A stretch of 12,983 nt of DNA, from positions 1-12,983 of the IMG/VR virus record IMGVR_UViG_2802429224_000017, one strand, 5' to 3'. This stretch comes from a virus (taxonomy: Duplodnaviria > Heunggongvirae > Uroviricota > Caudoviricetes). Position numbers and translations under genes: made by a program. This document shows positions 1-12,983 of the stretch, piece after piece. The notes beneath the pieces were generated by a model that was not told where the DNA came from, searched no databases, and saw nothing but the letters and a program-made list of their open reading frames with translations. The first letter of the stretch is position 1; every line of letters starts with the position of its first letter.

Positions 1-260
1 TTTTTTTAGATTTTCGTGCGCTTGATCGGATATATGATTTTTGCGGTTTTTGTTCGTTTTTCGGTTTTCGGTGGTCGCTGGTCGCTGGTCTGGCAGCATA
101 GGATCATCCTTTTTCGAAAATCAATGCTTTTTTTTGGAAAGTGCTTAAAAATTATCGTGCTGGCTGAATCAATAACCAGCAAAGGGTATTAAGTGTGGGT
201 GCGTTGAGGATGCCTGACACATCAGAGATGGCGGGAGATTACTCCCCCGCCTAGTCACTC

Positions 261-416
261 TTACTCTCTAGATTCGTAGTCTACGAAAACAGCGACCTCC
301 GTCTGGCCGGTTCGGATTCGTACCTCGCAGAGGTCTTTCCTCATTACCAGCGCCATCGCAATGACGGTTAAACAGATGACGATCAGGGCGATTAACATCG
401 CCTTTTGCTGCTTCAT
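261..416 (-). CDS. hok: Hok/Gef-family type I toxin, 51 aa small membrane protein
   Basis: Translation MKQQKAMLIALIVICLTVIAMALVMRKDLCEVRIRTGQTEVAVFVDYESRE is near-identical in length and sequence pattern to E. coli HokD/RelF and Gef as I recall them; single hydrophobic helix then conserved CEVRIRTGQTEVA motif; SD AAGGAG about 9 nt upstream of ATG at 416. Confidence 0.85.
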   Translation of the reverse strand: MKQQKAMLIALIVICLTVIAMALVMRKDLCEVRIRTGQTEVAVFVDYESRE

Positions 417-473
417 AGCCTGCTTCTCCTTGCCTTTCGGCACGTAAGAGGCTAACCTGATGTTGTCATGCAT
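261..473 (-). CDS. mok: Mok-like in-frame N-terminally extended reading frame overlapping hok (70 aa)
   Basis: In-frame ATG 19 codons upstream of hok ATG (MHDNIRLASYVPKGKEKQA + Hok) with GAGG 8 nt upstream; mirrors the mok/hok arrangement of known hok loci where Mok is an in-frame extension coupling hok translation (recalled, not verified). Confidence 0.45.
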   Translation of the reverse strand: MHDNIRLASYVPKGKEKQAMKQQKAMLIALIVICLTVIAMALVMRKDLCEVRIRTGQTEVAVFVDYESRE

Positions 474-590
474 AGGGAGCCTCAGATTAATGTTAAGCGT
501 CTTGCCGGACGCATAATGTTAACTGGGGCTTTTCTCTATCTGCCTTTTGGTGTTCATGCCTGAGACAGATAGCCTCAAGCACCCGCAACA

Positions 591-618
591 ATTCTACAAA
601 AAATCATCTCAATTTCAA
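591..618 (-). promoter_or_regulatory. Sigma70-type promoter (TTGAAA-16 bp-TAGAAT) immediately downstream of Q stop, reading toward hok; probable hok mRNA promoter
   Basis: On minus strand -35 TTGAAA (plus coords 613-618), 16-bp spacer, -10 TAGAAT (591-596); predicted start about 584 places the RNA 5-prime end at a sequence complementary to the region just beyond the hok 3-prime hairpin. Confidence 0.5.
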
Positions 619-620
619 TT

Positions 621-1031
621 TTACTGTATTTCTGCAACCGACCTTCCGGATGAGCCGCGCCCAACATATCTGTCCATTTCCAGTCTGATATCAAGCATCA
701 TCAACATCCCATCAACTACCCCTTCAGCCTTTTGCAATAAACGTCCAACCCAGCAATCGGAACGCCCATGCTTCTTTGCTAGTGCCATGAACGTCATTCC
801 GAACACATAGTAATCAACCAGTAAGTCATGTAAATCTTTGTTGTTCTTATTCAGCCTGGACATGCACCCGCAAATGACCATTGCGTCATCATCACTACAT
901 TGCGGACGTGATTTAACCTTTGACGGAATCAACCCCTTAAATCCGGCAGCAATGGACGACCAAGTAACATCCTCGTGGTTATTTGCCACCCATGCCCCCC
1001 ACCGTTCTAAAACCATCTGAATATCACGCAT
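621..1031 (-). CDS. Small Q-like late antiterminator (Phage_antitermQ-type, QuuD-like), 136 aa
   Basis: N-terminus [35 protein letters not shown] and Cys-rich [13 protein letters not shown] core match my recollection of small Q-family antiterminators of E. coli cryptic prophages; position downstream of the replication genes fits Q. Not verified by search. Confidence 0.6.
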
Positions 1032-1288
1032 CAGCGCAGTACCTCCTGCACCAGTTTTTCAAACTTACCAACTTTGGTTTCCAGCTCTGCCACACAATCC
1101 ACCAGCTCATCCACTGCTTTTTGTGCGCGATGTTTTGCCTGCATCAGTTCCCTGAGCGCTGGCACCATATCCCGACGAATGGCATCTTTTGTTACACCTG
1201 ATTTTTCCAGTTGTTCCGCCTGTCGCAACATTTCCTGTGCCTGTTTACGTAATTGCTCAGGGGTAAAAGTCATTGTCTGGTTGCTCAA
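1031..1288 (-). CDS. Hypothetical small coiled-coil protein (85 aa; alternative start at 1273)
   Basis: ORF on same strand as flanking genes, start overlaps DnaB-like stop (ATGA) and stop overlaps Q start; charged, helix-rich sequence; no recognisable family. Confidence 0.45.
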
Positions 1289-2676
1289 AAGAAACGCTCC
1301 ATCTTACTGCTGTCAGTTCGTTTGTTGCTGTATCTGCGCGGCTGGGGCTGCTGCATTGGGGTGGAAAGAATCTGTGCGCTTTCCTGATCCACAGGCAGAA
1401 AATGTCCGTTATAAAAACGCCGATAAATCGTCCCCAGAGAACCGTTACGTTGTTTCGTGATATTGATTTCTGCGATGCCCCTGGCCTGCGTATCCGGGTT
1501 GTACACTTCATCCCTGTAAAGCATCAGAATGATGTCTGCATCCGCCTCTATTTCTCCGGAATTTTTCAGGTCTGAGTTCATGGGGCGTTTATTGGGTCTG
1601 AACTCCACACCGCGGGAGAGCTGGCTCAGCGCAATCAACGGAAAACCACCGGATTTTGCCAGGCCTTTAAGCCCCTTTGAGATTTCACCAACGGCAAGGT
1701 CATGACGCCCCGTGGTTCGGGTTTTTATCAGTCCGAGATAATCAACCACCACCAGCGCCGTTTCCGGATGTTTAATCAGGTGGTGTTTCGTTGTTGCGCA
1801 TATCTCGTCAATGGTCAGGTTCGCCTGGTCCACCATCCAGATATTGCGCCCGGTCATCCGCCCCACTCCTTGTGAGAAACGTGCCCAGTCTTCGTCTTCA
1901 AAGTGAGCGACAGATTTCAGGCGTGATACCGGCATTCCTCCAGCCGCAGATACCATGCGTTCACCAATCTGGATGTTCGCCATTTCCATTGTGAACAGAA
2001 GAACACCATGCCCCTGCTCAGTCACCTTGTCGATGATATCCAGCGCCAGTTCGGTTTTGCCCATTGACGGACGAGCCGCAATAAATACCAGGTCGCCGGG
2101 CTCCATGCCGCCTGTTTTTGCGTCCAGTTCATCAATACCGGTCATCAACGTTCTGGATTTTTCCAGTCCCTGATTCCGGCATTCAACACGCTCAACCACT
2201 TCCGGAAGCACATCATCAATATGTACCGGCTGAATAACGCCCTTTTCCGTCGACAATGAGGCCATCATGTTCTGCGCATCCTTCAGGGCATCTTCAGCCG
2301 CTTCACAGGTATGCGCATCACGTAATTTCTGCAGCGCCTCATTCAGCGTTTTTTCTGCATCGCGCAATGCGGCATTGCGACGCAACGCCGCAACATAGTG
2401 CTCCAGTGAAGACTTCACCCAGGTTTTACGCCCGGTATCAGTAATCACCGGAGCAAGTTCCGGCATCTCATTACACAACAGCACAGGATCAATCACACCT
2501 GAAACACGGGCCTGTCTGCAGATGCCTGTGTAGATATCCCGATACGCTCGTACAGAAAAAACGTCCGCTGGCAGTGTGGCCAGAATATCCAACACTTCAG
2601 GATCTGCCCCACGCAGAAAGAACGCGCCAATGACAGCGCCTTCAAGGTCATCGTTACGCCAGACTGGTGTTGTCAT
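1285..2676 (-). CDS. DnaB-like replicative DNA helicase (463 aa from ATG at 2676)
   Basis: Walker A GDLVFIAARPSMGKTELALDI, later LVVVDYLGLI and RecA-fold motifs typical of the DnaB family; SD GAGGTG upstream of ATG 2676, which overlaps the stop of the upstream loader gene. The track start at 2715 is probably too far upstream. Confidence 0.85.
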   Translation of the reverse strand: MTTPVWRNDDLEGAVIGAFFLRGADPEVLDILATLPADVFSVRAYRDIYTGICRQARVSGVIDPVLLCNEMPELAPVITDTGRKTWVKSSLEHYVAALRRNAALRDAEKTLNEALQKLRDAHTCEAAEDALKDAQNMMASLSTEKGVIQPVHIDDVLPEVVERVECRNQGLEKSRTLMTGIDELDAKTGGMEPGDLVFIAARPSMGKTELALDIIDKVTEQGHGVLLFTMEMANIQIGERMVSAAGGMPVSRLKSVAHFEDEDWARFSQGVGRMTGRNIWMVDQANLTIDEICATTKHHLIKHPETALVVVDYLGLIKTRTTGRHDLAVGEISKGLKGLAKSGGFPLIALSQLSRGVEFRPNKRPMNSDLKNSGEIEADADIILMLYRDEVYNPDTQARGIAEINITKQRNGSLGTIYRRFYNGHFLPVDQESAQILSTPMQQPQPRRYSNKRTDSSKMERFF

Positions 2677-3563
2677 GCAGCCACACCTCTGATATGTACA
2701 CGGTAGCTTTCCCAACCAAACACCAGGCAGTTACGCCCACCATCAGTAACGCGATCCACAATCCGTTCACCAATGGACTCCTTAAGCTGGTCAAACGTCA
2801 GATTGCTGATCAAAATTGTCGGTAAAACGCTTTCGTAACGTGCATTGATGATTTCCTGCAGGATGGTTATCTCTGTTGGCGTACCGAACTGCACACCAAC
2901 CTCATCGATGATGAGCAGGTCCAGCGATACAAAATGGTCAATAACTTCATCTTCAGTGCGTTCAGAATTGTGACGCCAGGTATTTTTCACAGCGCGGGTC
3001 AGTCGCATGACATCCGTAATTTCGACAGTCGCCAGGTGGTGGCGAATAATATTTTTTGCCATTGATACAGCCAGGTGATTTTTCCCGGTACCGCAATTGC
3101 CAATCATGATCATGCTGGTACCCGCAGCAAGACACTTCTCCCATGAACTGGCATAGCGCCGACAAGCCTCAAGATTTCTCTGTGCGTCAGCATTCACAGC
3201 CTGGTAGTTCTCAAACTCGCAGTCCTGGAAGCGGCGGGCAATACCAGCTCTGTCAAGTAATTCATGAACTTTCAGGATGCGTAACGCCTCCTGTACCTGA
3301 TCCAGTTCATTCGCAATGCAGATCGGGCAACCAGACACCCGTTTGATGGTTTCCCCACGAACATCTGGCCCTTTCAACACCAGACGTGTGTATTTCCCGT
3401 GTTTCTCACACTCAGCAGTTTCCTCGCTTGTCAGCCAGTGTTCACAGCGCCACGGACGCTTCCCGGCACGGGCAAACTGCATCTCCTCCTCCAGTTCCGC
3501 CCTGCGGTTGAGCAATTGCGCTTTGTCGTGTTGTGCGTAGTGTTTTTTTAACTGTTCAAACAT
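2673..3563 (-). CDS. DnaC/IstB-like AAA+ helicase loader with Cys-rich N-terminal region (296 aa)
   Basis: Walker A GNCGTGKNHLAVSMA and Walker B LLIIDEVG; N-terminal CEHW...CEKH...CPIC arrangement suggests a zinc-binding module; SD GAGGTGA 7 nt upstream of ATG. Confidence 0.8.
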   Translation of the reverse strand: MFEQLKKHYAQHDKAQLLNRRAELEEEMQFARAGKRPWRCEHWLTSEETAECEKHGKYTRLVLKGPDVRGETIKRVSGCPICIANELDQVQEALRILKVHELLDRAGIARRFQDCEFENYQAVNADAQRNLEACRRYASSWEKCLAAGTSMIMIGNCGTGKNHLAVSMAKNIIRHHLATVEITDVMRLTRAVKNTWRHNSERTEDEVIDHFVSLDLLIIDEVGVQFGTPTEITILQEIINARYESVLPTILISNLTFDQLKESIGERIVDRVTDGGRNCLVFGWESYRVHIRGVAA

Positions 3564-3582
3564 TGTTCATCACCTCGAAAAA

Positions 3583-4392
3583 TCACCAGTTGAAGTTCGT
3601 TGAACCGTAGTCCTGCTCACTGAATCCCGAGATCGGGAGGCCGGTAGTTCGCCTACCTCCAGGAGCGGCTGGCTGTTGCCAGGATTCCTCGAAATGGCGA
3701 TCGGGTCCAAAGAACGTCGCGGCCTGCTTCACGAACTGTGTGCCGGTATTTCCTGTAGCACGTACCCAGGCGGCATACCGCTTCACGCCATCAAGCATGG
3801 TCTCCGGTTTTATTCCCTCCCTGATACGGGCTTTCCAGGCTTTGAAGGCTGCTGACTTGGAATTGCCACCAGCACGTTTGGGATATTCCTGCCAGGCCTG
3901 TTCAAATTCCGGTGAATATTCCTGTCGGGCAGAACGCGCTGGTGCAGACGCGTCAGCGGATGCGCCAATAGTTGATTCATTGACTGGTTCTTTGACTGGT
4001 TCAAAAGAGTGACTGGTTCTGGGTGAATCTCCTGCACTACCCCCTGGTGCAACTCCTGCACCACCTGGTGAATTTGCTGCACTAGGTAGTGAATTATTTG
4101 CACTACCACCTGGTGAATCTTTTGCACCATCAAGACGAAGAAGATAAATATTGCTCGAGTTCCCTTTTTCACCTTTCCGGGAAACTTTTTTTACCAGTCC
4201 AGATTCACAAAGAGCCGTAATATGATTCATCACAGAACGTTTGCTAATCTCGCACTGATCAGCAATATGCTGATAACTGGGCCAACACTCGCCCTGATCG
4301 CTGGCATTATCAGCCAGCTTAATCAGAACCAGTTTTCGCAACGGATTTCCCACACGAATTTTCATCGCTTTCACCATCAGGTCCATGCTCAT
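3583..4392 (-). CDS. Phage replication initiator-like protein: N-terminal winged-HTH domain, Pro/Gly/Ser-rich linker, C-terminal domain (269 aa)
   Basis: N-terminus LRKLVLIKLADNASDQGECWPSYQHIADQCEISKRSVMNHITALCESGLV is a typical replication-protein winged HTH; gene lies immediately upstream of the DnaC-like and DnaB-like genes; the linker is encoded by iteron-like DNA repeats. Confidence 0.6.
   Translation of the reverse strand: MSMDLMVKAMKIRVGNPLRKLVLIKLADNASDQGECWPSYQHIADQCEISKRSVMNHITALCESGLVKKVSRKGEKGNSSNIYLLRLDGAKDSPGGSANNSLPSAANSPGGAGVAPGGSAGDSPRTSHSFEPVKEPVNESTIGASADASAPARSARQEYSPEFEQAWQEYPKRAGGNSKSAAFKAWKARIREGIKPETMLDGVKRYAAWVRATGNTGTQFVKQAATFFGPDRHFEESWQQPAAPGGRRTTGLPISGFSEQDYGSTNFNW
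3981..4130. repeat. Iteron-like direct repeats inside the initiator gene (candidate origin of replication)
   Basis: Five roughly 22-bp direct repeats with consensus TGGTGAAT-n4-TGCACTACC at about 4020, 4044, 4065, 4087 and 4109, preceded by three copies of TGACTGGTTC (3981, 3993, 4010). This resembles the lambda arrangement of ori iterons within gene O. Confidence 0.5.
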
Positions 4393-4613
4393 AACACACC
4401 TCCCAGGCGTTTAAACATTTTTCCGGACTGAAACGCCATCAACGGATAGCTAATGGTGTAGTTACGCCCCAGTAATTCACACACAACTTTCTGGCTTTCG
4501 GTGCTGACCAGGCAAACACGCAGAACGTAGCCGTTGCTGGTGGCGAACCACTGCCCCACACGGGGGCAACGGTTGTATCGGTGACACAGGGAATTAACGA
4601 TGCGACGAATCAT
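4389..4613 (-). CDS. Hypothetical small Cys-containing protein (74 aa from ATG at 4613)
   Basis: ORF translationally coupled at both ends (ATGA overlaps with the 220-aa gene upstream and the initiator gene downstream); no family recognised. Confidence 0.4.
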   Translation of the reverse strand: MIRRIVNSLCHRYNRCPRVGQWFATSNGYVLRVCLVSTESQKVVCELLGRNYTISYPLMAFQSGKMFKRLGGVL

Positions 4614-5272
4614 GGGCGCACCTCCCATTGATTACGGCGGAAAGCGGTGTGACTGAGACTGGTTTCAGCCTCATGAAATGCTTCAATACAGCTCTCGTAG
4701 TACCGCATTGTGCGCAGACTTAACCCAAGCTGAAGCATCATCAGGCCATCAAGGGTGATGTAATAACCACGCAGGGAGTCACCATAGATGTGATAAGTGC
4801 CCGGTATGAAATTGCGGGTAAAAAAATCGCGCGAGCAGTTCAGATACTCGATTTTGTCGACGATGTTCTGGTGCATGCGCTTGAAGTGGCAGGCAACATG
4901 CAGGGAGAAAATAACAGCTTTGCCGTTGACGACTTCGATTTTCAGGTATGGGGAAGTTGGGACTGTAGCCATGATGGCAGCCTCCGATAACAGTGAATTA
5001 CCTTCACCACCGGAAACGCCAATTTCGCTGGTGGTGAACTGAACGGGGTTGGCGTAACCGGCGTTATCGGAAACCGGCGCACCTTTCGGTGCCCCCGTCC
5101 AGCCCACCATAATTTGGGTGTGCGCAGACGCAGACGACAAAAAAGACGCTGGCGCGTCATATATCGCCGATAACATTTCCAGGACGCCAATCCCGGCACC
5201 CGCTTTATAAGGTGCAGGGACAGTGTAACGTCCCGAAATTGCAGAATCAATATTTAGGCTTGAAACATTCAT
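4610..5272 (-). CDS. Hypothetical protein (220 aa), Gly/Ala/Ser-rich N-terminal half
   Basis: Longest ORF in the interval, same strand as the operon, stop overlaps the next start; no recognisable motifs. Confidence 0.5.
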   Translation of the reverse strand: MNVSSLNIDSAISGRYTVPAPYKAGAGIGVLEMLSAIYDAPASFLSSASAHTQIMVGWTGAPKGAPVSDNAGYANPVQFTTSEIGVSGGEGNSLLSEAAIMATVPTSPYLKIEVVNGKAVIFSLHVACHFKRMHQNIVDKIEYLNCSRDFFTRNFIPGTYHIYGDSLRGYYITLDGLMMLQLGLSLRTMRYYESCIEAFHEAETSLSHTAFRRNQWEVRP

Positions 5273-5350
5273 ATGCTTACTGGTATTTTTATTGATGTTC
5301 TTGGATTCTTGGGCCTGCTTTATGCAGTTGCCTGTATCAACGTTGAGCGA

Positions 5351-5375
5351 GCCGGGTCACTACCCGGCTTTTTTT
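5351..5375 (+). terminator. Intrinsic terminator-like hairpin (GCCGGGT-CACT-ACCCGGC followed by T7) in plus-strand orientation
   Basis: Perfect 7-bp GC-rich stem at 5351-5368 followed directly by TTTTTTT (5369-5375) on the plus strand, abutting the Rha stop codon; on the minus strand the hairpin is preceded by an A-run, so it may act bidirectionally or end an antisense RNA. Confidence 0.45.
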
Positions 5376-6082
5376 CACCGCTGCCAACCAATAACCTGAA
5401 ATAACCCCATTTTCGAGTGATACCAGCGAGTCCCTCGCGGTTCTGCTTCCTCCATAACCCGATAAAAAGCAGCCATAAACGGTTCCACGGCAACAATTGC
5501 ACGACGCGACAACAATCCGTCCGGCGTCATGAACTCGTGGGTATCGGTAGGAATTTGATAGGCATTCACCAGATTGCGGCATTTATCATCTGACAAACCG
5601 GTTTTCGCTTTCAGTTGGCGATATCCGGCATAGCCCTCACGAATGGTGCCCTTTTTGATTTGCTCAACTGTTTCGGCAACGTGGCTGACTTTTTCTTCCA
5701 CCTGAGTGATCCGTTTCTGCTGACGAACAGCTTCAAGAGCCATCGCAGCAACCATTTCGATTTCGCTCATTGGCTTACGGATCTGTTCTTCCAGTTCGCG
5801 CCAGCGATCTACCAGGCGAGCAGTGAATTCAGGACAGAGCTGTGCGACGACAATGATGCTGTCGCGCTTACCTTGTTCTCCTTCAAACAGGTAATGCTCA
5901 TATTGAACTTTAAAACCTAAGTTATTGATTCTTTCGGAAACCTCAATTTGAGGAGACCGGACAACGCCACCTTTGGCTAATGTTTCAATAGTGCGTTTCA
6001 CATTGTCATGACGTTTACCCACCAGCTCTGCAATTTCAACGCTGGTCATGGATACTTTGCCGTTAAAAATTGCGGTGTTCAT
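5375..6082 (-). CDS. Phage regulatory protein, Rha family (235 aa)
   Basis: N-terminus VSMTSVEIAELVGKRHDNVKRTIETL matches the conserved Rha (Phage_pRha) signature; sits directly downstream of the cro-like gene; SD AGGAGA upstream, start overlaps cro-like stop. Confidence 0.8.
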   Translation of the reverse strand: MNTAIFNGKVSMTSVEIAELVGKRHDNVKRTIETLAKGGVVRSPQIEVSERINNLGFKVQYEHYLFEGEQGKRDSIIVVAQLCPEFTARLVDRWRELEEQIRKPMSEIEMVAAMALEAVRQQKRITQVEEKVSHVAETVEQIKKGTIREGYAGYRQLKAKTGLSDDKCRNLVNAYQIPTDTHEFMTPDGLLSRRAIVAVEPFMAAFYRVMEEAEPRGTRWYHSKMGLFQVIGWQR

Positions 6083-6369
6083 TGTTTATCTCCTGCGTGT
6101 ATTCCATCCGCTCTGTGTGGTGAACTTGGATTTAGGCTTTTGCGTAACAAGTTAGGAATTCCATCTTCAGGGTGAGGATAAAGATCTGGCCTTAAGCCAT
6201 GAGGCGTAACCTTCCATGCAACTACTTCACATACTCGTAAAACGAAACGAGCAGGAATTGTGCTTTTTGAAAACCACTGATTCACCGCTTGCGGCGTCAC
6301 ACCAAGATTTCGCGCTATGGCATTTTGCGCAATTAATGCACGAAGTTTGTCGTAATCATTTCCTTTCAT
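6079..6369 (-). CDS. Cro-like HTH regulator of the YdaS type (96 aa)
   Basis: NLGVTPQAVNQWFSKSTIP...GLRPD resembles YdaS/Cro-type small HTH proteins; divergently transcribed from the cI-like repressor gene across a 133-bp AT-rich intergenic region. Confidence 0.65.
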   Translation of the reverse strand: MKGNDYDKLRALIAQNAIARNLGVTPQAVNQWFSKSTIPARFVLRVCEVVAWKVTPHGLRPDLYPHPEDGIPNLLRKSLNPSSPHRADGIHAGDKQ

Positions 6370-6502
6370 AACAAAGCACCAATATTAACTTTATAAATCA
6401 AGAATACATCAAGTTTAAATTAACATGCAAGTTGCAAAAGGATCGAATACACTAAAATCAAGTAAAGATTTATCCTTGTAAAGAAACCCACAGGATTTGG
6501 TC
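6370..6502. promoter_or_regulatory. Immunity-region intergenic control region (divergent cI-like and cro-like promoters, candidate operators)
   Basis: AT-rich 133-bp spacer between divergent repressor genes; repeated ATCAAG(T) motifs at 6397, 6408 and 6457 and the palindrome TGCAAGTTGCA at 6428-6438; exact -10/-35 elements not assigned with confidence. Confidence 0.5.
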
Positions 6503-7192
6503 ATGAAGAACGTCAAAAACACGGAAAATCGAATAGCCGCGATGCTGAAAGCAAAAGGATGGACTCAGGCTCAACTGGCCCGCAAGTTAGGTGTGAGTGC
6601 GCAATCAGTGCAGTACTGGACAACAGGAAAAACATTTCCACGGAGTGATAAGCTCGCGCATTTATCAGAGATTAGCGGTTATCCACAATCCTGGTTCTTA
6701 GGTGAAGACACCTCACCAACCTTTTCCTCGCAAGAGAAACACCAGACAAGAACAGATAGCGTCGTGTTTAATGTCCTTGATGTTGAGTTTAGTTGCGGTG
6801 ATGGAACTCATGTCCGTGGTGACTTGATAGATGTAGTGCGCTCAATAGAACTTGATCCTGAATATGCCCGACGTCTTGTTGGAAATCGGGCATTCAAAAA
6901 TATAGAAATAGGTAACGCCAGAGGAGACAGTATGGCTCCCACAATCTCACCTGGCGACCTTCTTTTTCTTGATAAGACAGTAACTTATTTTGATGGCGAT
7001 GGTATTTATGCATTTTGTTTTGATGGAGAATGCTACGTGAAAAGGCTTCAAAAAATTGGAAGCAAAATCATGGTGTTATCTGATAACCCCAATTATCAAC
7101 CATGGAGCATCGAAAAAGAGGGGTTAGCTCTGCTTTATATCCAGTCTAAAGTGATCTCATCAGTACCATTCAACATAAACAGATTTGGTTAG
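6503..7192 (+). CDS. cI-like prophage repressor (N-terminal XRE-type HTH, C-terminal LexA/S24 autopeptidase domain), 229 aa
   Basis: HTH WTQAQLARKLGVSAQSVQYW; C-terminal GDSMAP (catalytic Ser) and CYVKRL (Lys) dyad typical of LexA/cI/UmuD; AGGA 6 nt upstream of ATG at 6503 (the track used TTG at 6497). Confidence 0.9.
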   Translation: MKNVKNTENRIAAMLKAKGWTQAQLARKLGVSAQSVQYWTTGKTFPRSDKLAHLSEISGYPQSWFLGEDTSPTFSSQEKHQTRTDSVVFNVLDVEFSCGDGTHVRGDLIDVVRSIELDPEYARRLVGNRAFKNIEIGNARGDSMAPTISPGDLLFLDKTVTYFDGDGIYAFCFDGECYVKRLQKIGSKIMVLSDNPNYQPWSIEKEGLALLYIQSKVISSVPFNINRFG

Positions 7193-7203
7193 TCTTTGAT
7201 TTT

Positions 7204-7226
7204 AACGGGCTTTGCCCGTTTTTTTT
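7204..7226 (+). terminator. Rho-independent terminator downstream of the repressor gene
   Basis: AACGGGC-TTT-GCCCGTT hairpin (7204-7220) followed by a run of 8 T, 12 nt after the repressor stop codon. Confidence 0.7.
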
Positions 7227-7256
7227 CTGCCTGAAATATACGATATCAATTTTTTC

Positions 7257-7285
7257 TTGACAGCCTATTTCCCAAAGCATAATAT
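7257..7285 (+). promoter_or_regulatory. Near-consensus sigma70 promoter (TTGACA-17 bp-TAATAT), pL-like early-left promoter
   Basis: TTGACA at 7257-7262, 17-bp spacer, TAATAT at 7280-7285; dyad ATCAAT-n7-TTGAT (7292-7308) overlaps the predicted start and is a candidate operator. Confidence 0.6.
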
Positions 7286-7338
7286 CGCACCATCAATTAT
7301 AACTTGATTTGATTCAATTTAAAATTGTTGGTGGATAT

Positions 7339-7887
7339 ATGAAGACACTAAAAGCAACTCCAGAAACAACTAATTTTATCAACTGCGGCTGTGTTACGCT
7401 TAAGGGCTTAGAACTTGATTCCTTTGCATTAAATATTGCAAATTTGCTAAGTGCTGTACGCACATTCCATCTTCTGGATTGTGCTCGCTCAAAGGAACTG
7501 GGCATTGAGGTAATGGAATTTATCCATGAATATGCTCTATCTGCTGCTTCTCCTGCACAACAAAAACAATCCTTCCCTGAAAGCTGGCTGGTTAACCTTC
7601 GCACCCAACGCGAAGCCTGCGGCTTAACAACCGCCGAACTCGCCAGGCTGCTCGCTCTTGATGAAGAAATCATCATCCAGTGGGAGAGCGGAGAGTATGA
7701 ACCAACCATCAGTATGCTTATCCCACTGGCAAATATTCTTGGCTGCGATCCGATGTGGCTGTTAACTGGTGAGGTTACTCCTCCGGAGCAACCAAAAAGT
7801 GAGGAGCAGCAACACCATGACGCATCTCAACAAGTTTGCTCCTTATCTCGCGAAGCTCTTCTACGGAAGAACCAATACCAATGGTGA
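7339..7887 (+). CDS. Two-domain protein: unknown N-terminal domain plus C-terminal XRE-family HTH (182 aa)
   Basis: C-terminal LTTAELARLLALDEEIIIQWESGEYEPTISMLIPLANILGCDPMWLL is an XRE-type HTH; N-terminal roughly 90 aa share a domain with the next gene; first gene after the pL-like promoter; GGTGGA upstream of ATG 7339. The C-terminal 37 codons overlap a minus-strand ORF with a good SD. Confidence 0.55.
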   Translation: MKTLKATPETTNFINCGCVTLKGLELDSFALNIANLLSAVRTFHLLDCARSKELGIEVMEFIHEYALSAASPAQQKQSFPESWLVNLRTQREACGLTTAELARLLALDEEIIIQWESGEYEPTISMLIPLANILGCDPMWLLTGEVTPPEQPKSEEQQHHDASQQVCSLSREALLRKNQYQW

Positions 7888-8015
7888 CATAATCGCCGCT
7901 TCGCCCCTCAAGGTACATGCGAACATTTTTATCAATCATTGCGGAAACAGTCTCAATATGAAAACACTTCTGAGACTCGCTATATAGCAGAACATATAAG
8001 TCAGCTGAGGAAGCC

Positions 8016-8381
8016 ATGAAAAAGTTCGAAAACATAACTGTTCTCCATGTTGATGACTTTGATTATACAAACCCGGACCTTCTCCCGGAGGTTGTAAAGG
8101 CAATAGATGTTGCCGATATAGTGATTAGAGGAAAGAGAATTGTCAAAAACAGGCTCGCATGCACTTCAGGAGCAATGACAGAAACAACCTCACAACAAGA
8201 TGATTATGAAGGCATTTGTCCGGAGCCTGATTCATTTGCGGTAAATGTTTATCATTTATTGCATGCAACACAGGTATTACATATGTCCAGTAATCACGAA
8301 ACAAAAGCACTTGGCAGCGAAATTCTGAATTTTGCATGTGAATATGCAAAAGCTGCTGCCGAAAAAGAATTAGCGCAATAA
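8016..8381 (+). CDS. Hypothetical protein (121 aa) whose C-terminal about 50 aa are paralogous to the N-terminal domain of the preceding HTH protein
   Basis: By-eye alignment DSFAVNVYHLLHATQVLHMSSNHETKALGSEILNFACEYAKAAA versus DSFALNIANLLSAVRTFHLLDCARSKELGIEVMEFIHEYALSAA (about 22 of 47 identical); SD GAGGAAG upstream. Confidence 0.55.
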   Translation: MKKFENITVLHVDDFDYTNPDLLPEVVKAIDVADIVIRGKRIVKNRLACTSGAMTETTSQQDDYEGICPEPDSFAVNVYHLLHATQVLHMSSNHETKALGSEILNFACEYAKAAAEKELAQ

Positions 8382-8577
8382 CAATAAATATTCCCTGAAT
8401 GTTTATTACGGTTTTATCGCCGGGGATTGTTGCAACCTTTATTCGCAGGAGATTATGTTATGACTTTCCTGAAACATAAGGCATCGTATAAAACTGCCTG
8501 CCTCATTGCACAACATGGAGATTCTTATCTTCATATAGCCAACCTGTATTTGCGCAAAGCATATGGGAGATAAATAA

Positions 8578-8766
8578 ATGAAAGAAAAACAACAGAATAT
8601 AACACATAAAAAAGTAAGAGTGTTGCTAACCATTGAAAATGGTGAAGTAATTTACTCAAAACATCTGCTGGATAATGAATTCGTTGGCTGCATGGATACA
8701 TTTCTGTGGATGGCAAAAAGAGCTGGCTACACGATTATTCCACCAGCAAAGGAGCAAATATTATGA
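8578..8766 (+). CDS. Hypothetical small protein (62 aa)
   Basis: GGGAGA 7 nt upstream of ATG; stop overlaps the start of the next gene (ATGA), indicating translational coupling. Confidence 0.45.
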   Translation: MKEKQQNITHKKVRVLLTIENGEVIYSKHLLDNEFVGCMDTFLWMAKRAGYTIIPPAKEQIL

Positions 8767-9344
8767 ATCATTCAGAGTTCCGACCAGAAGTAACGCCACA
8801 TGGCATAAAAATTGGTAATACAACCATTGATTATATTCAGGCCGTACAGCGGCTTAATGATGGCGAATTCGATAATCCATACTGGCACGGTTTAAGAATC
8901 ATGCAATGTCTTGCCGAAGCTGATGATGCCGGATTGCTGGGAAGATTTTCAGTCGATCTGAAGGTTGCTCAGTGGCGCTGGCTGTATGTGATGAAGTTTA
9001 TCAGTGAAGAGGAAGACAAGAACGGCACTATTGATATCCCTAACGATAACGGGACGACAGATCGCGCAGTTATTTACAAGGGGAAACATGGTTGCATAAG
9101 TATATACCCAGGACCACTTCGCATTGCCCTGCAAAACCATGTCGAATGGGGATTTATTGAAAAATATGGCGAAACTGAAGGCATGGGGCGAGTTCTGTTT
9201 CTATATCAAAAAATGCTCATTGCAGATCTTGATAATGGTTTCATTCTCTCTGCTATGGGGCGCGAAGGGCTTGAACTCCTTCTGGATAAAATGATTAACG
9301 ACCTGAATACTCATGGTATGCCAGAAGCGCCAGTGACACATTAA
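8763..9344 (+). CDS. Hypothetical protein (193 aa from ATG at 8763)
   Basis: AAGGAG 7-8 nt upstream of ATG 8763 (the track start at 8706 lacks an SD); ORF uninterrupted for 193 codons; no family recognised. Confidence 0.6.
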   Translation: MNHSEFRPEVTPHGIKIGNTTIDYIQAVQRLNDGEFDNPYWHGLRIMQCLAEADDAGLLGRFSVDLKVAQWRWLYVMKFISEEEDKNGTIDIPNDNGTTDRAVIYKGKHGCISIYPGPLRIALQNHVEWGFIEKYGETEGMGRVLFLYQKMLIADLDNGFILSAMGREGLELLLDKMINDLNTHGMPEAPVTH

Positions 9345-9520
9345 ATATTAAGAAGAAAATAACTCTTCCGTTTTTTACTAACCGTTTATATGAAAAGCAA
9401 CCGTGAATTAAACAGAGTAAAACTGATTTTAATCCTTGCCACAGTACTGACACTAACTGAAATCATTATTCTCTTTATTGCGCTGTCAGTCGGTTAAAAA
9501 TATCGGGATACCACAGACCA

Positions 9521-9709
9521 ATGAGACTGTATTTCACAATAGTAATTTTACTGGCAATTATCGCATGCATTTACGGATTACTTGTTCCGTTCCTTATATC
9601 CATGAAGGATACGATAGCAGTTATTTCTGGCTTTGCACTGGCGTTTCTGACCCCGCCCTGCATTTATGCCATTTACAAGGGTCTTTCTTTCACTAAGGAT
9701 AAAAGATGA
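9521..9709 (+). CDS. Small two-helix integral membrane protein (62 aa), translationally coupled to the SPFH lipoprotein gene
   Basis: Two hydrophobic stretches (FTIVILLAIIACIYGLLVPFLI and AVISGFALAFLTPPCIYAIY); stop TGA overlaps the ATG of the downstream gene (ATGA at 9706-9709). Confidence 0.45.
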   Translation: MRLYFTIVILLAIIACIYGLLVPFLISMKDTIAVISGFALAFLTPPCIYAIYKGLSFTKDKR

Positions 9710-10533
9710 AAAAAATCATTTTTGCTTTAGCCATTGTTCTGCCGACTATTGGCCTTGTCGGTTGCGATCGCGTTGAACCAGGTAATGTTGGCATCAAGGT
9801 AAATAAACTGGGCGACGACAAAGGCGTCGGTGAGGTGGTCGGTGTTGGTCGCTACTGGACTGGCTGGAATACTGAAGTTTATATCTTCCCCACCTTCAAA
9901 CAAATGAAGACCTACGATGAACCGTTCAGTTTCCAGATGAGTGACGGTACAACCATCGGCTATCACATTGGCGTAGCCTACAAAGTTGATCCATCCAAAG
10001 TTACCACGGTGTTTCAGACCTACCGCAAAGGCGTGGATGACATTACAGACACCGACCTGCGCCAGAAGATCGCCGACGCACTCAACCGACTGGCCAGCAA
10101 AATGACCACTGACAAATTTATCGACGGCGGCAAGTCTGAGCTGCTGGATGAAGCTCTTAAAGACATTCAGGCAGAGATGACACCTATCGGTATTCAGGTA
10201 ATGAGCCTCTCATATGTGGGTAAGCCGGAGTACCCGCCTACTGTTATCGACAGCATTAATGCCAAAGTCACGGCGAACCAGAAAACACTGCAGCGCGAGC
10301 AGGAAGTTAAACAGCGCGAAGCGGAAGCCAACATGTTGCGCGCGGAAGCTGCCGGACAGGCTGATGCGATTCGCACAAAAGCCCAGGCTGAAGCCGACGC
10401 CATTCGTTTACGCGGTGAAGCTCTGCGCCAGAACCCCGGTGTTATGGAGCTGGAAGCCATCAATAAATGGAACGGCACACTGCCGCAATACATGACCAGC
10501 GGTGCTAATACACCATTTATCCAGGTTAAATAA
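9706..10533 (+). CDS. SPFH/band-7 (stomatin-prohibitin-flotillin-HflKC) domain lipoprotein, predicted inner-membrane anchored (275 aa)
   Basis: Signal peptide with lipobox LVGC (Cys20) followed by Asp at +2; central SPFH-like core and C-terminal Ala/Glu/Arg-rich coiled coil (REQEVKQREAEANMLRAEAAGQADAIRTKAQAEADAIRLRGEALRQ) characteristic of band-7 proteins. Confidence 0.8.
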   Translation: MKKIIFALAIVLPTIGLVGCDRVEPGNVGIKVNKLGDDKGVGEVVGVGRYWTGWNTEVYIFPTFKQMKTYDEPFSFQMSDGTTIGYHIGVAYKVDPSKVTTVFQTYRKGVDDITDTDLRQKIADALNRLASKMTTDKFIDGGKSELLDEALKDIQAEMTPIGIQVMSLSYVGKPEYPPTVIDSINAKVTANQKTLQREQEVKQREAEANMLRAEAAGQADAIRTKAQAEADAIRLRGEALRQNPGVMELEAINKWNGTLPQYMTSGANTPFIQVK

Positions 10534-10573
10534 CTTATATGCCCGGCAGGCCGCCGGGCTAAGGGAAATGCAG

Positions 10574-10945
10574 ATGAACACCCAGAATACTCAACCGCAA
10601 ATAATGAACTATGACCCAAATCTGACGTCATGCGGACGCATGGCAAAACAAACCGTTCGATTAACTTTCGGACTATGGGAATACCGCGAAACATTCGAAG
10701 TCACTGTCGGCGGCAATCTGACCGGACTGGATGTTATCAGTTGCGCTATTGAAAGCCTGTACGCAACGCTACCTTATGAAGAAGTCCAGAATGAGCGCAC
10801 AGGGAGAACGGATATCATGGCTACCATTAATATTGGCGAACTGACATGCCAGGATGAAGACCTGTCCGGAGAGCTCTGGCTTGCCGGGATGCTTATCTCA
10901 GCAGAAATTATCAGTATTGAACCCGCTATAAACATACGGCTCTGA
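10574..10945 (+). CDS. Hypothetical protein (123 aa from ATG at 10574)
   Basis: AAGGGA 7 nt upstream of ATG 10574; the track start at 10502 would overlap the SPFH gene and a GC-rich hairpin; no family recognised. Confidence 0.5.
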   Translation: MNTQNTQPQIMNYDPNLTSCGRMAKQTVRLTFGLWEYRETFEVTVGGNLTGLDVISCAIESLYATLPYEEVQNERTGRTDIMATINIGELTCQDEDLSGELWLAGMLISAEIISIEPAINIRL

Positions 10946-10976
10946 AGTTCTCACTATTCAGAGGGCAGGAGAAAAA

Positions 10977-11219
10977 ATGTTCGCTTTGATTAATCAGGGA
11001 CAACTGTATACCGACAGTGCCGGTTACCCGGTAAAAATTATTCGCTGCATAAATAACACAGTGTTGTACAAAAGAATGGATGGGCGAACACAGTCGGTAA
11101 AAATAAACGATTTTAATGAACTGTTTGAACGACTCGATCACCAGGAATACCGACAAATTCTGGCAGAAACAGAACAGGAAACTCATCTGAAAAAATTACG
11201 GGCTATGAAAAGGAAATAA
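10977..11219 (+). CDS. Hypothetical small protein (80 aa)
   Basis: GGAG-containing SD (GGCAGGAGAAAAAATG) upstream; compact basic/acidic small protein typical of xis-proximal phage genes. Confidence 0.5.
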   Translation: MFALINQGQLYTDSAGYPVKIIRCINNTVLYKRMDGRTQSVKINDFNELFERLDHQEYRQILAETEQETHLKKLRAMKRK

Positions 11220-11222
11220 AGA

Positions 11223-11369
11223 ATGAACAAAGCGTTTGAGCTATGGGTACGCCAGCGTTACGGCAATCGCTATGACCTGACGCGAGATGTTGACGGTTTC
11301 TACTGCCGTGAAATTGTGAAACGAATGTTTGAAGTGTGGTGCCACTGCCGTGGGCTGAGTGTTGTGTGA
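11223..11369 (+). CDS. Hypothetical very small protein (48 aa), below the ORF-track length cutoff
   Basis: Manual translation from ATG 11223: MNKAFELWVRQRYGNRYDLTRDVDGFYCREIVKRMFEVWCHCRGLSVV, stop TGA 11367-11369; AAAGGAAA upstream; fills the gap between the flanking genes on the same strand. Confidence 0.3.
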   Translation: MNKAFELWVRQRYGNRYDLTRDVDGFYCREIVKRMFEVWCHCRGLSVV

Positions 11370-11377
11370 GGTAATGC

Positions 11378-11614
11378 ATGGGCAATGTGATTCAACTGGC
11401 TCCCAATGAATGGGTTTGTGAAAGCGTTCTTATCGCAATTACCGGGCTCAAACCAGGCACAATTCTCCGGGCCCGGAAAGAATGCTGGATGGTAGGAAGA
11501 GAGTATATTCACGTATCGCCTGACGGTAATCCAAAACCTTCCAGCGAATGTATGTATAACAGAAAAGCAATCGATGCCTGGGTCGCTTCAATGAAAAACA
11601 AACAACCCAGGTGA
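11378..11614 (+). CDS. xis: Excisionase-like protein (78 aa)
   Basis: Small protein immediately upstream of the integrase on the same strand; sequence consistent with the enterobacterial prophage excisionase-like family; GAGGT 7 nt upstream of ATG. Confidence 0.65.
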   Translation: MGNVIQLAPNEWVCESVLIAITGLKPGTILRARKECWMVGREYIHVSPDGNPKPSSECMYNRKAIDAWVASMKNKQPR

Positions 11615-11669
11615 TTTAATACCATGAAATATGTAAGCTCGTATCGCTCTTGGGCGTCTGGAGGTATCG

Positions 11670-12983
11670 ATGGATAAAGTCAAATATCCAACAGGCGTCG
11701 AAAACCACGGTGGCACATTACGCATCTGGTTTAATTTTAAAGGTAAACGTGTCAGGGAAAACCTTGGTGTCCCTGACACTGCCAAGAACAGGAAGATCGC
11801 CGGAGAGCTGCGGACATCTGTATGTTTTGCCATTCGTACAGGAAACTTTGATTACGCTGCGCAGTTCCCTGACTCTCCTAACCTCAGGGCTTTTGGGGTA
11901 AATAAAAAAGAAATTACGGTGAAAGAGCTTGAAGAAAAGTGGCTGGATCTGAAACGCATGGAAATCTCTGCAAATGCATTCAATCGCTATGAATCCGTTG
12001 CAAGAACGATGGTTCCGAAAATTGGAGGTAGCAGACTGGTGTCAACGGTGACCAAAGAGGAATTGCTGTATATCAGGAAAGATTTGCTGACCGGATATCA
12101 GAATTCAACGAAAGACAAAGCACCAGCAAGAGGACGGAGCGTCGTTACTGTAAATTATTATATGACGACAATCGCTGGAATGTTTCAGTTTGCTGCAGAT
12201 CACGGTTACTTAGAAGCAAATCCCTTCGAGGGAATTAAGCCTCTTAAAAGAGCCAGGGCAGAGCCAGATCCGCTAACTCGTGACGAATTTATTCGCCTGA
12301 TAGATGCTTGCCGGCATCAGCAGACAAAAAACCTGTGGTCATTGGCTGTGTACACAGGAATGCGTCATGGTGAACTGGTCTCCCTGGCCTGGGAAGATAT
12401 CGATCTGAAAGCAGGAACAATTACTATCAGGCGCAATTATACGAAACTCGGTGAGTTCACTCTACCTAAAACTGAAGCAAGTACAAACAGGGTTGTGCAT
12501 CTTATCCAGCCCGCTATCAGTGTCCTGAAAAATCAGGCTGAAATGACAAGACTGGGTAAGCAGCACCACATCAAGGTTCAACTACGTGAATATGGACGTT
12601 CAGTGAATCATGAATGTACTTTCGTATTTAACCCCCAGGTGGTTAGAAAAAGCAAACAGGTAGGTTTTATCTACAAGGTAGATTCCATTGGCGACTCATG
12701 GGAAACAGCCATTAAACGTGCAGGCATCAGGCATCGAAAGGCATACCAGTCACGACACACTTATGCGTGCTGGTCATTATCTGCCGGAGCAAATCCAAGC
12801 TTCATTGCCAGCCAGATGGGCCATGCAAGTGCCCAGATGGTGTTCAATGTATACGGAGCATGGATGACTGACAGCAATGCAGAACAGATCGCAATGCTGA
12901 ATCAGAAGCTGGCAGATTATGTCCCAATGATGTCCCATAGTCACCAAAGTGACACAAGAGGCCTATTAAAATCAGTGGGTTAG
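11670..12983 (+). CDS. int: Tyrosine-family site-specific integrase (437 aa)
   Basis: C-terminal catalytic region with conserved Arg (GMRHGE), His-x-x-Arg (SRHTYA) and Tyr nucleophile (VYGAW); GGAGGT SD; stop TAG is the last three bases of the window. Confidence 0.9.
   Translation: MDKVKYPTGVENHGGTLRIWFNFKGKRVRENLGVPDTAKNRKIAGELRTSVCFAIRTGNFDYAAQFPDSPNLRAFGVNKKEITVKELEEKWLDLKRMEISANAFNRYESVARTMVPKIGGSRLVSTVTKEELLYIRKDLLTGYQNSTKDKAPARGRSVVTVNYYMTTIAGMFQFAADHGYLEANPFEGIKPLKRARAEPDPLTRDEFIRLIDACRHQQTKNLWSLAVYTGMRHGELVSLAWEDIDLKAGTITIRRNYTKLGEFTLPKTEASTNRVVHLIQPAISVLKNQAEMTRLGKQHHIKVQLREYGRSVNHECTFVFNPQVVRKSKQVGFIYKVDSIGDSWETAIKRAGIRHRKAYQSRHTYACWSLSAGANPSFIASQMGHASAQMVFNVYGAWMTDSNAEQIAMLNQKLADYVPMMSHSHQSDTRGLLKSVG

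Follow-up and report, generated by a model that had tools for sequence, protein, structure and literature searches.

The p37, p62 and p193 genes of a phiP27-like prophage: two neighbouring genes that assort independently behind a conserved 37-codon reading frame

Two genes that follow each other in a phage operon and share a few nucleotides raise the question of whether they also work together. In this study we focus on such a pair, p62 and p193, and on the 37-codon open reading frame (ORF) in front of it, p37, which lie on the + strand of a stretch of viral DNA of 12,983 nucleotides (nt) (Caudoviricetes; IMG/VR record IMGVR_UViG_2802429224_000017, positions 1 to 12,983), the whole of which is called the window below. 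A sequence-only reading of this DNA had suggested that the small-plus-large pair could be a toxin-antitoxin, anti-defence or exclusion module.

The three ORFs are genuine genes, and p62 and p193 assort independently among related loci. The explanation that we favour, with moderate confidence, is that p37, p62 and p193 would be three independent accessory genes of a leftward early operon and would belong to a mosaic array headed by the conserved, translationally coupled p37.

Assortment and families of p62 and p193

The genes and their Shine-Dalgarno (SD) sequences are as follows.
8447-8452, + strand: SD AGGAGA of p37, 7 nt before its ATG at 8460
8460-8573, + strand: p37, a basic 37-residue protein (isoelectric point 9.8); stop codon TAA at 8571-8573; supported by substitution rates and conservation
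8565-8570, + strand: SD GGGAGA of p62, which is also the p37 codons GGG AGA (Gly-Arg), 7 nt before the p62 ATG at 8578
8578-8766, + strand: p62, 62 residues, phrog_340 (phiP27 L07); stop codon TGA at 8764-8766
8749-8754, + strand: SD AAGGAG of p193, 8 nt before its ATG at 8763
8763-9344, + strand: p193, 193 residues, phrog_1515 (phiP27 L06); stop codon TAA at 9342-9344

The sequence-only reading had the boundaries of the three ORFs, the p37 peptide, the p37 SD, the ATGA overlap of p62 and p193 and the good SD of each coupled gene right; the p62 SD, which it put after the 37-codon ORF, is present but lies inside the last two sense codons of that ORF.

About 220 related loci were gathered from annotated genomes, IMG/VR and GTDB genomes. 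The three ORFs, the 37-codon one included, are kept in about 200 related loci, and their ratio of non-synonymous to synonymous substitution rates (dN/dS) is 0.25 for p62, 0.15 for p193 and 0.08-0.13 for p37 in the proposed frame, against 0.46-4.5 in the other two frames of p37. Values so far below 1 mean that p37, p62 and p193 code for proteins and that purifying selection acts on all of them. In p37, the window and a sister E. coli clade differ by 14-17 synonymous changes at about 24 sites and 12-14 non-synonymous changes at 87, and in comparison with Citrobacter and Phytobacter the synonymous sites of p37 are saturated. Furthermore, p37 is full-length in essentially all collected loci, and an SD-like purine run stands at the right spacing before it in every lineage despite differing flanks.

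The genes downstream of p37 were classified in all loci with enough sequence, which gave 16 array architectures. The fullest array, found in genera other than that of the window, reads p37 - h67 - phrog_1737 - p62 (phrog_340) - ParE-like (PF24732) - phrog_1886 - p193 (phrog_1515) - (tm35 - m62 - SPFH), where h67 is a helical protein of about 67 residues and tm35 and m62 are small membrane proteins. Judged by gene order, the window array is a reduced version of it, in which p62 and p193 became neighbours.

The arrangement p37-p62-p193 is confined to the Escherichia phiP27/Stx-phage lineage, where p62 and p193 are kept adjacent across about 150 loci. Conservation of the pair in related prophages, on which the two-gene proposal depended, holds within this lineage but not outside it. 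In the sister E. coli clade a 5-nt spacer replaces the overlap. Elsewhere, Yersinia (L007), Phytobacter (L009), Enterobacterales CwR94 (L011) and Providencia (L013) have p193 but no p62, and loci L097-L099 have p62 but no p193; two other genes stand between them in Citrobacter (L008) and Klebsiella (L100), and their order is reversed in L208. Obligate inheritance of both genes, the mark of a type II toxin-antitoxin pair, was not found across the 16 architectures. With this independent assortment, the adjacency seen in the window would be the product of a reduced array and not a two-component signature.

The ATGA overlap, which had been read as implying stoichiometric co-expression, says little, since eight same-strand gene junctions have a 4-nt overlap in the PGAP annotation of a prophage that is 98.9% identical to the window. 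In a phage operon, neither overlapping genes nor a small gene ahead of a larger one can be taken as a sign that the two form a two-component module. Pfam, NCBIfam, PADLOC and structure comparison revealed neither a domain nor a fold of a toxin or antitoxin in p62 or p193. The remark that the three proteins have no recognisable motifs proved correct: at E<0.1 neither Pfam, NCBIfam nor PADLOC matched p37, p62 or p193, and a PDB sequence search gave no match worth considering for any of them. A toxin-antitoxin reading of p62 and p193 is not supported by these comparisons; anti-defence or exclusion roles of the individual proteins are possible.

A ParE-like protein of 72-73 residues (PF24732, E down to 3e-21) is frequently encoded in the early arrays of other lineages (L097:4188-4406, L100:4185-4403 and L096:3160-3381), with no recognisable antitoxin beside it. 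Some copies of its gene, in L097-L102, are overlapped by p62. Since the gene is also found without p62 (in Fraca, L009 and L169), p62 cannot be an obligate partner of it.

Both families have already been catalogued with unknown function: p62 matches phrog_340 over residues 2-60 (E=4.6e-24) and p193 matches phrog_1515 over residues 1-193 (E=2.2e-90). The p62 model is a β-hairpin with one helix. The AlphaFold model of p193 is confident (predicted local distance difference test 90.4, predicted template modelling score 0.84) and consists of three β-meander-plus-helix units; a Foldseek search against BFVD gave no match, and the predicted fold has no counterpart among known structures and is apparently new. 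Being only mildly acidic (isoelectric point 5.1, net charge -10), p193 is no DNA mimic of the Ocr type. Among 1.84 billion representative proteins, a profile search with the p193 family found only 130 relatives, nearly all of 190-220 residues, many of which have a conserved tail ..MP..PV(T/I/M)H; in the 10 that were scanned, the longest included, there was no Pfam domain and no annotated fused domain.

Three proposals for the origin or function of these proteins were not borne out. The name '2-polyprenylphenol hydroxylase related flavodoxin oxidoreductase', which some Klebsiella phage records (H151-H156) give to p193 homologues, is probably a misannotation that has been passed on: no FAD- or NAD-binding domain was found, neither p193 nor the 12 family members scanned match Pfam, and the fold predicted for p193 bears no relation to known structures. 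The idea that p193 is a fusion of the helical protein of about 67 residues with the phrog_1737 protein of about 118 residues, which follow p37 in Fels-1 and Fraca, was rejected, because the C-terminal similarity in hhalign is weak (E=0.002, probability 13%) and some loci encode p193 together with members of the two families. For p62, weak matches to positions 191-239 of phrog_4792 (E=0.004 for p62 and 4.5e-5 for a 71-residue homologue) had suggested a free-standing C-terminal domain of an anti-repressor (Ant/Rha). This was not confirmed by hhalign, which found no match between p62 and an Ant-type protein of L011, or by local hidden Markov model searches, in which the p62 model found no long ORF with an anti-repressor domain across 223 loci.

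The p37 reading frame and the hairpin before it

Of the three, p37 shows the strongest conservation and the widest distribution. It is probably a helix-Gly-helix, and its homologues, 48 distinct peptides of 32-40 residues (mostly 32-38), share the motif ..AY(K/R)TA.L...G....IA.L(F/Y)L(R/K)KAYGR. They are found in prophages of Escherichia, Citrobacter, Salmonella (Fels-1), Klebsiella, Enterobacter and Cronobacter and on a few phage-like plasmids; tblastn located them in Stx1- and Stx2-converting phages, Fels-1 (unannotated), Fraca (annotated, 38 residues), Cronobacter ENT39118 and Klebsiella phages. In Citrobacter, identity to the window sequence is 73-76% for p37 but just 46-51% for p193.

So far p37 is known just as an occasional automated gene call. 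PGAP calls no coding sequence for it here, none is given in the phiP27 record, and PHROGs contain no family for it; the exact peptide is present in public protein sets as 'uncharacterised protein' (e.g. UniProt A0A0K4CEM3), on thousands of contigs. A literature search for its C-terminal motif returned no paper containing the motif, a general search of the phiP27 literature returned nothing relevant, and p37 is not listed in the supplements of a ribosome profiling (Ribo-seq) paper on small genes of enterohaemorrhagic E. coli Sakai (PMC5597208). RefSeq (PGAP) has missed p37, yet it is more conserved than its neighbours, across several genera.

In every one of the 16 architectures p37 is the first cistron. 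It is followed by p62 in 160 loci, by the helical protein of about 67 residues in about 31 and by phrog_1737 in 6, and the next cistron starts 2-4 nt after the p37 stop codon in most loci and overlaps p37 in a few. In all lineages, whichever gene comes next, the Gly codon near the end of p37 is GGG followed by purine-rich bases, in most of them the rare Arg codon AGA. From a start within a few nt of the p37 stop and an SD in the end codons of p37, we infer that p37 is translationally coupled to the following gene. The C-terminal conservation of p37 is partly nucleotide-level selection for the SD of the next gene, whereas in the remaining peptide it is the amino acids that are kept.

Conservation is also striking in the 78 nt before p37, which contain one further element.
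8409-8422, + strand: hairpin CGGU-UUUAUC-GCCG, 51 nt upstream of the p37 start

The hairpin is followed by a conserved stretch, GGGGAUUGUUGCAACCU at 8422-8438; within 8409-8443 (+) the conserved stretch after the hairpin reads GGGGAUU..ACAACCU. A stem of 4 bp with a loop of 6 nt, its 5' base 46-53 nt before the p37 start, is present in 38 distinct upstream sequences, most sequences of the set having been chosen by a filter that required pairing. Within this filtered set, 14 divergent representatives have stems CGGU/GCCG, CGGC/GCCG, CAGC/GCUG, CAGC/GUUG, CACC/GGUG and UGCC/GGCA; 100% of cells pair, and compensatory double changes occur in three of the four pairs; the covariation score was reached by 0 of 500 shuffles, and slid controls collapse. 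The lineages with compensatory changes comprise Escherichia, Salmonella, Klebsiella and Enterobacter-type phages. In the stem there are U.G and G.U wobbles, which fit the + strand (sense RNA) only, and some close variants carry single stem mutations. The hairpin may play a part in the processing or stability of the mRNA or in the translation of p37.

The element does not resemble an intrinsic terminator, and Rfam has no match between 8000 and 9600. It was also rejected as a lambda-type nut site. In lambda, a boxA (CGCUCUUA-like) lies 5' of a hairpin with a 5-bp stem and a conserved GNRA-like pentaloop, near the early promoter. Here the stem has 4 bp, the 6-nt loop is variable (UUUAUC, UUAAUC, UUCACU, UUAAAC, AUGGCU), there is no boxA-like sequence 5' of the hairpin, and the promoter-like site at 7257-7285 is about 1.1 kb away.

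These features raise the alternative that p37 is mainly a cis-acting regulatory leader ORF, whose translation, possibly together with the hairpin, would set the translation or stability of the downstream array; the peptide would then be conserved for its action in the ribosome or on the mRNA. The constant first place of p37, the invariant GGG within the SD of the next gene, the concentration of conservation at the C-terminus, L(F/Y)LRKAYGR-stop, and a conserved sense-strand hairpin at a fixed distance upstream all agree with it. We nevertheless hold it to be unlikely. The amino-acid conservation extends over the whole of p37 at saturated synonymous change, a pattern seen more typically in proteins that fold or bind a target, and a ribosome paused at the p37 stop codon would cover rather than expose the downstream SD. 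Moreover, the folding of 8382-8600 is ordinary (z = -0.8), and the hairpin is absent from lineages where p37 abuts an upstream ORF. Compared with leader peptides of the TnaC and SecM class, p37 is likewise a short conserved ORF directly upstream of a coupled cistron, with its C-terminus most conserved; it differs in that the SD of the next gene sits in its last codons and not in a masked structure, that the whole of p37 is conserved, and that no arrest motif is known for it.

A broader suggestion, which we offer as tentative, is that p37, perhaps with the hairpin, constitutes an unrecognised 'head' element of the early accessory arrays of many enterobacterial temperate phages, either as a micro-protein that hits a conserved host target (as do lambda CIII and Kil) or as a peptide/RNA device that gates array translation or stability, and that, independently, p193 has a new fold. 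If p37 does have a host target or a regulatory role, a widespread small protein would join the short list of characterised lambdoid early functions.

The early operon and the time of expression

The window is 98.9% identical to a chromosomal prophage of E. coli LH50-c that adjoins yecE and 97.8% identical to the Stx2e phage phiP27; it represents a phiP27-like lambdoid prophage that has integrated at yecE. Around the three genes lie the following features.
about 6503-7192, + strand: cI-like S24 repressor gene
7204-7220, + strand: terminator-like hairpin after the cI-like gene
7257-7285, + strand: promoter-like site TTGACA-17-TAATAT, the best of the region in a consensus scan
7309/7339-7887, + strand: gene of a second helix-turn-helix (HTH) protein
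8016-8381, + strand: 121-residue ORF (68 residues if begun at 8175), a full-length match to phrog_5451 (E=2.7e-81)
8460-9344, + strand: p37, p62 and p193, after the 121/68-residue ORF
9390-9497, + strand: unannotated hydrophobic ORF of 35 residues
9521-10533, + strand: 62-residue membrane protein and SPFH protein
downstream of the SPFH gene, + strand: DUF5406, DUF4222, then xis and int (from 11670)

p37, p62 and p193 are located between the cI-like repressor gene and xis/int, on the strand of the repressor gene, which bears out their earlier placing in a prophage accessory arm; a cro-like gene and the replication genes are divergent, on the other strand. By analogy with the established lambda map, this layout is the position of a lambda-type leftward early (pL-type) operon. 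The promoter-like site at 7257-7285 is probably the start of the operon that carries the three genes. It is flanked by ATCAA/TTGAT-type repeats that recur in the cI-cro intergenic region, and such shared motifs are consistent with a repressor-controlled pL without proving one; a search for an operator around 7245-7310 yielded only these loosely repeated motifs. A consensus scan found no sigma-70-like site on the + strand between 8205 and 9332, although such a scan could miss a weak promoter.

The operon would be transcribed from a promoter just downstream of the cI-like gene towards xis/int. Ribosomes finishing p37, the end codons of which serve as the ribosome-binding site of the next cistron, would pass straight to the following gene, and p193 would be translated from its own strong SD. 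The three proteins would be made after prophage induction or infection. In lambda, the products of the pL-operon genes cIII, kil, ral and the ea genes act by binding host or phage components, and p37, p62 and p193 may each act singly in this manner, in host take-over, anti-defence or the tuning of the lytic/lysogenic choice; p62 and p193 would then be neither a toxin-antitoxin pair nor a fixed two-subunit complex.

Several points weigh against this account of independent early genes. The promoter and operator assignments are consensus matches only, and read-through from the repressor transcript in lysogens is possible. All the Escherichia loci examined keep p62 and p193 adjacent, which would fit equally with a partnership of the two in this lineage, and the loci counted, the bulk of which belong to one E. 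coli lineage, are not independent observations. The binding of a host factor is suggested by analogy with lambda, and no relative in fold or sequence hints at function. Finally, the conserved hairpin before p37 has no place in the account.

Should the genes be read in lysogens, they might instead be lysogenic-conversion or superinfection-exclusion and defence genes that shield the host from other phages, as do rexAB or sieB of lambda, an alternative that we regard as improbable. Prophage arms beside the immunity region often hold defence genes, the three genes lie downstream of the repressor gene on the same strand, and they are followed by an SPFH-domain gene with small membrane partners, all of which would suit such a role. 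A terminator-like hairpin, however, stands between cI and the three genes, and the promoter-like site that comes next has beside it the motifs shared with the cI-cro region, as a repressed pL would. In PADLOC-DB v2, no family was found at E<0.1 for p37, p62, p193, the 121-residue ORF, the 62-residue membrane protein or the SPFH protein, and p37, p62 and p193 are predicted to be soluble, with neither membrane nor nuclease features.

Least probable of all is a dedicated two-component module, be it a type II toxin-antitoxin system or an obligate heteromer with its ratio fixed by the ATGA overlap: a small gene overlapping a larger downstream one does recall type II operons, the two are constant neighbours in the Escherichia loci, and p62, whose homologues elsewhere overlap a gene with a ParE-like toxin domain, could be a partner-binding protein, but the reading is disfavoured because the genes assort independently (as does the ParE-like gene from p62), are not conserved as a unit, lack toxin and antitoxin domains and have no promoter-like site before them in the consensus scan, and p193 carries its own SD, the overlap is the default in the prophage and gives way to a spacer in the sister clade, and both genes are embedded in a long operon.

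Relatives, and other features of the window

p62 and p193 are the same genes as L07 (P27p07) and L06 (P27p06) of phiP27, with 96-97% amino-acid identity and in the same place between the immunity region and xis/int. They have thus been catalogued as hypothetical proteins ('hypothetical protein, unknown') since the phiP27 genome record, and now belong to known PHROG families of unknown function. The record differs from our assignment in that L07 starts 5 codons upstream, inside p37 (overlapping its last 8 nt), with p37 unannotated, and in that L06 starts at an upstream GVG codon and has 212 residues.

p37, p62 and p193 are ordinary accessory genes, as expected of a lambdoid accessory arm. They resemble the lambda pL accessory genes (cIII, kil, ral, ea) in position, direction, small size, tight packing and variation between related phages, and lambda cIII and Kil are of the same size class as p37. 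No sequence similarity was detected between p37 and lambda, which was not among the 37 records found by tblastn over 50,697 phage records, and the window arm differs from that of lambda in having no recombination genes. Of 5,426 complete E. coli genomes, 341-359 (about 6%) carry the region, Stx1- and Stx2-converting prophages included.

The start of the 121-residue ORF is ambiguous, as PGAP calls only the C-terminal 68 residues (8175-8381) and the phiP27 record has the full 121. The hydrophobic 35-residue ORF at 9390-9497 (MKSNRELNRVKLILILATVLTLTEIIILFIALSVG), between p193 and the 62-residue membrane protein/SPFH genes, has no obvious SD; it is intact and 88-100% identical in most related loci that have the SPFH module. 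The 62-residue membrane protein gene (phrog_1130) overlaps the SPFH/Band-7 gene by ATGA, and the SPFH protein is weakly similar to HflK/HflC. Together they form a phage-borne HflKC-like module, which shares the operon with the 'CII-like' HTH protein and is carried by only part of the related arrays; PADLOC has no match for it.

Two other regions, both on the - strand, match Rfam families of regulatory RNAs. Positions 5027-5228 match C4 antisense RNA (82.8 bits) and isrK (63.7 bits), with a sub-threshold a1/b1 target, and point to a c4-antirepressor immunity circuit of the P1/P7 type adjoining Ash/KilA-N genes. At positions 411-584 the match, a strong one (117.5 bits, E=8.5e-27), is to the sok antitoxin RNA; a type I toxin-antitoxin locus of the hok/sok type is therefore implied at that end of the prophage.

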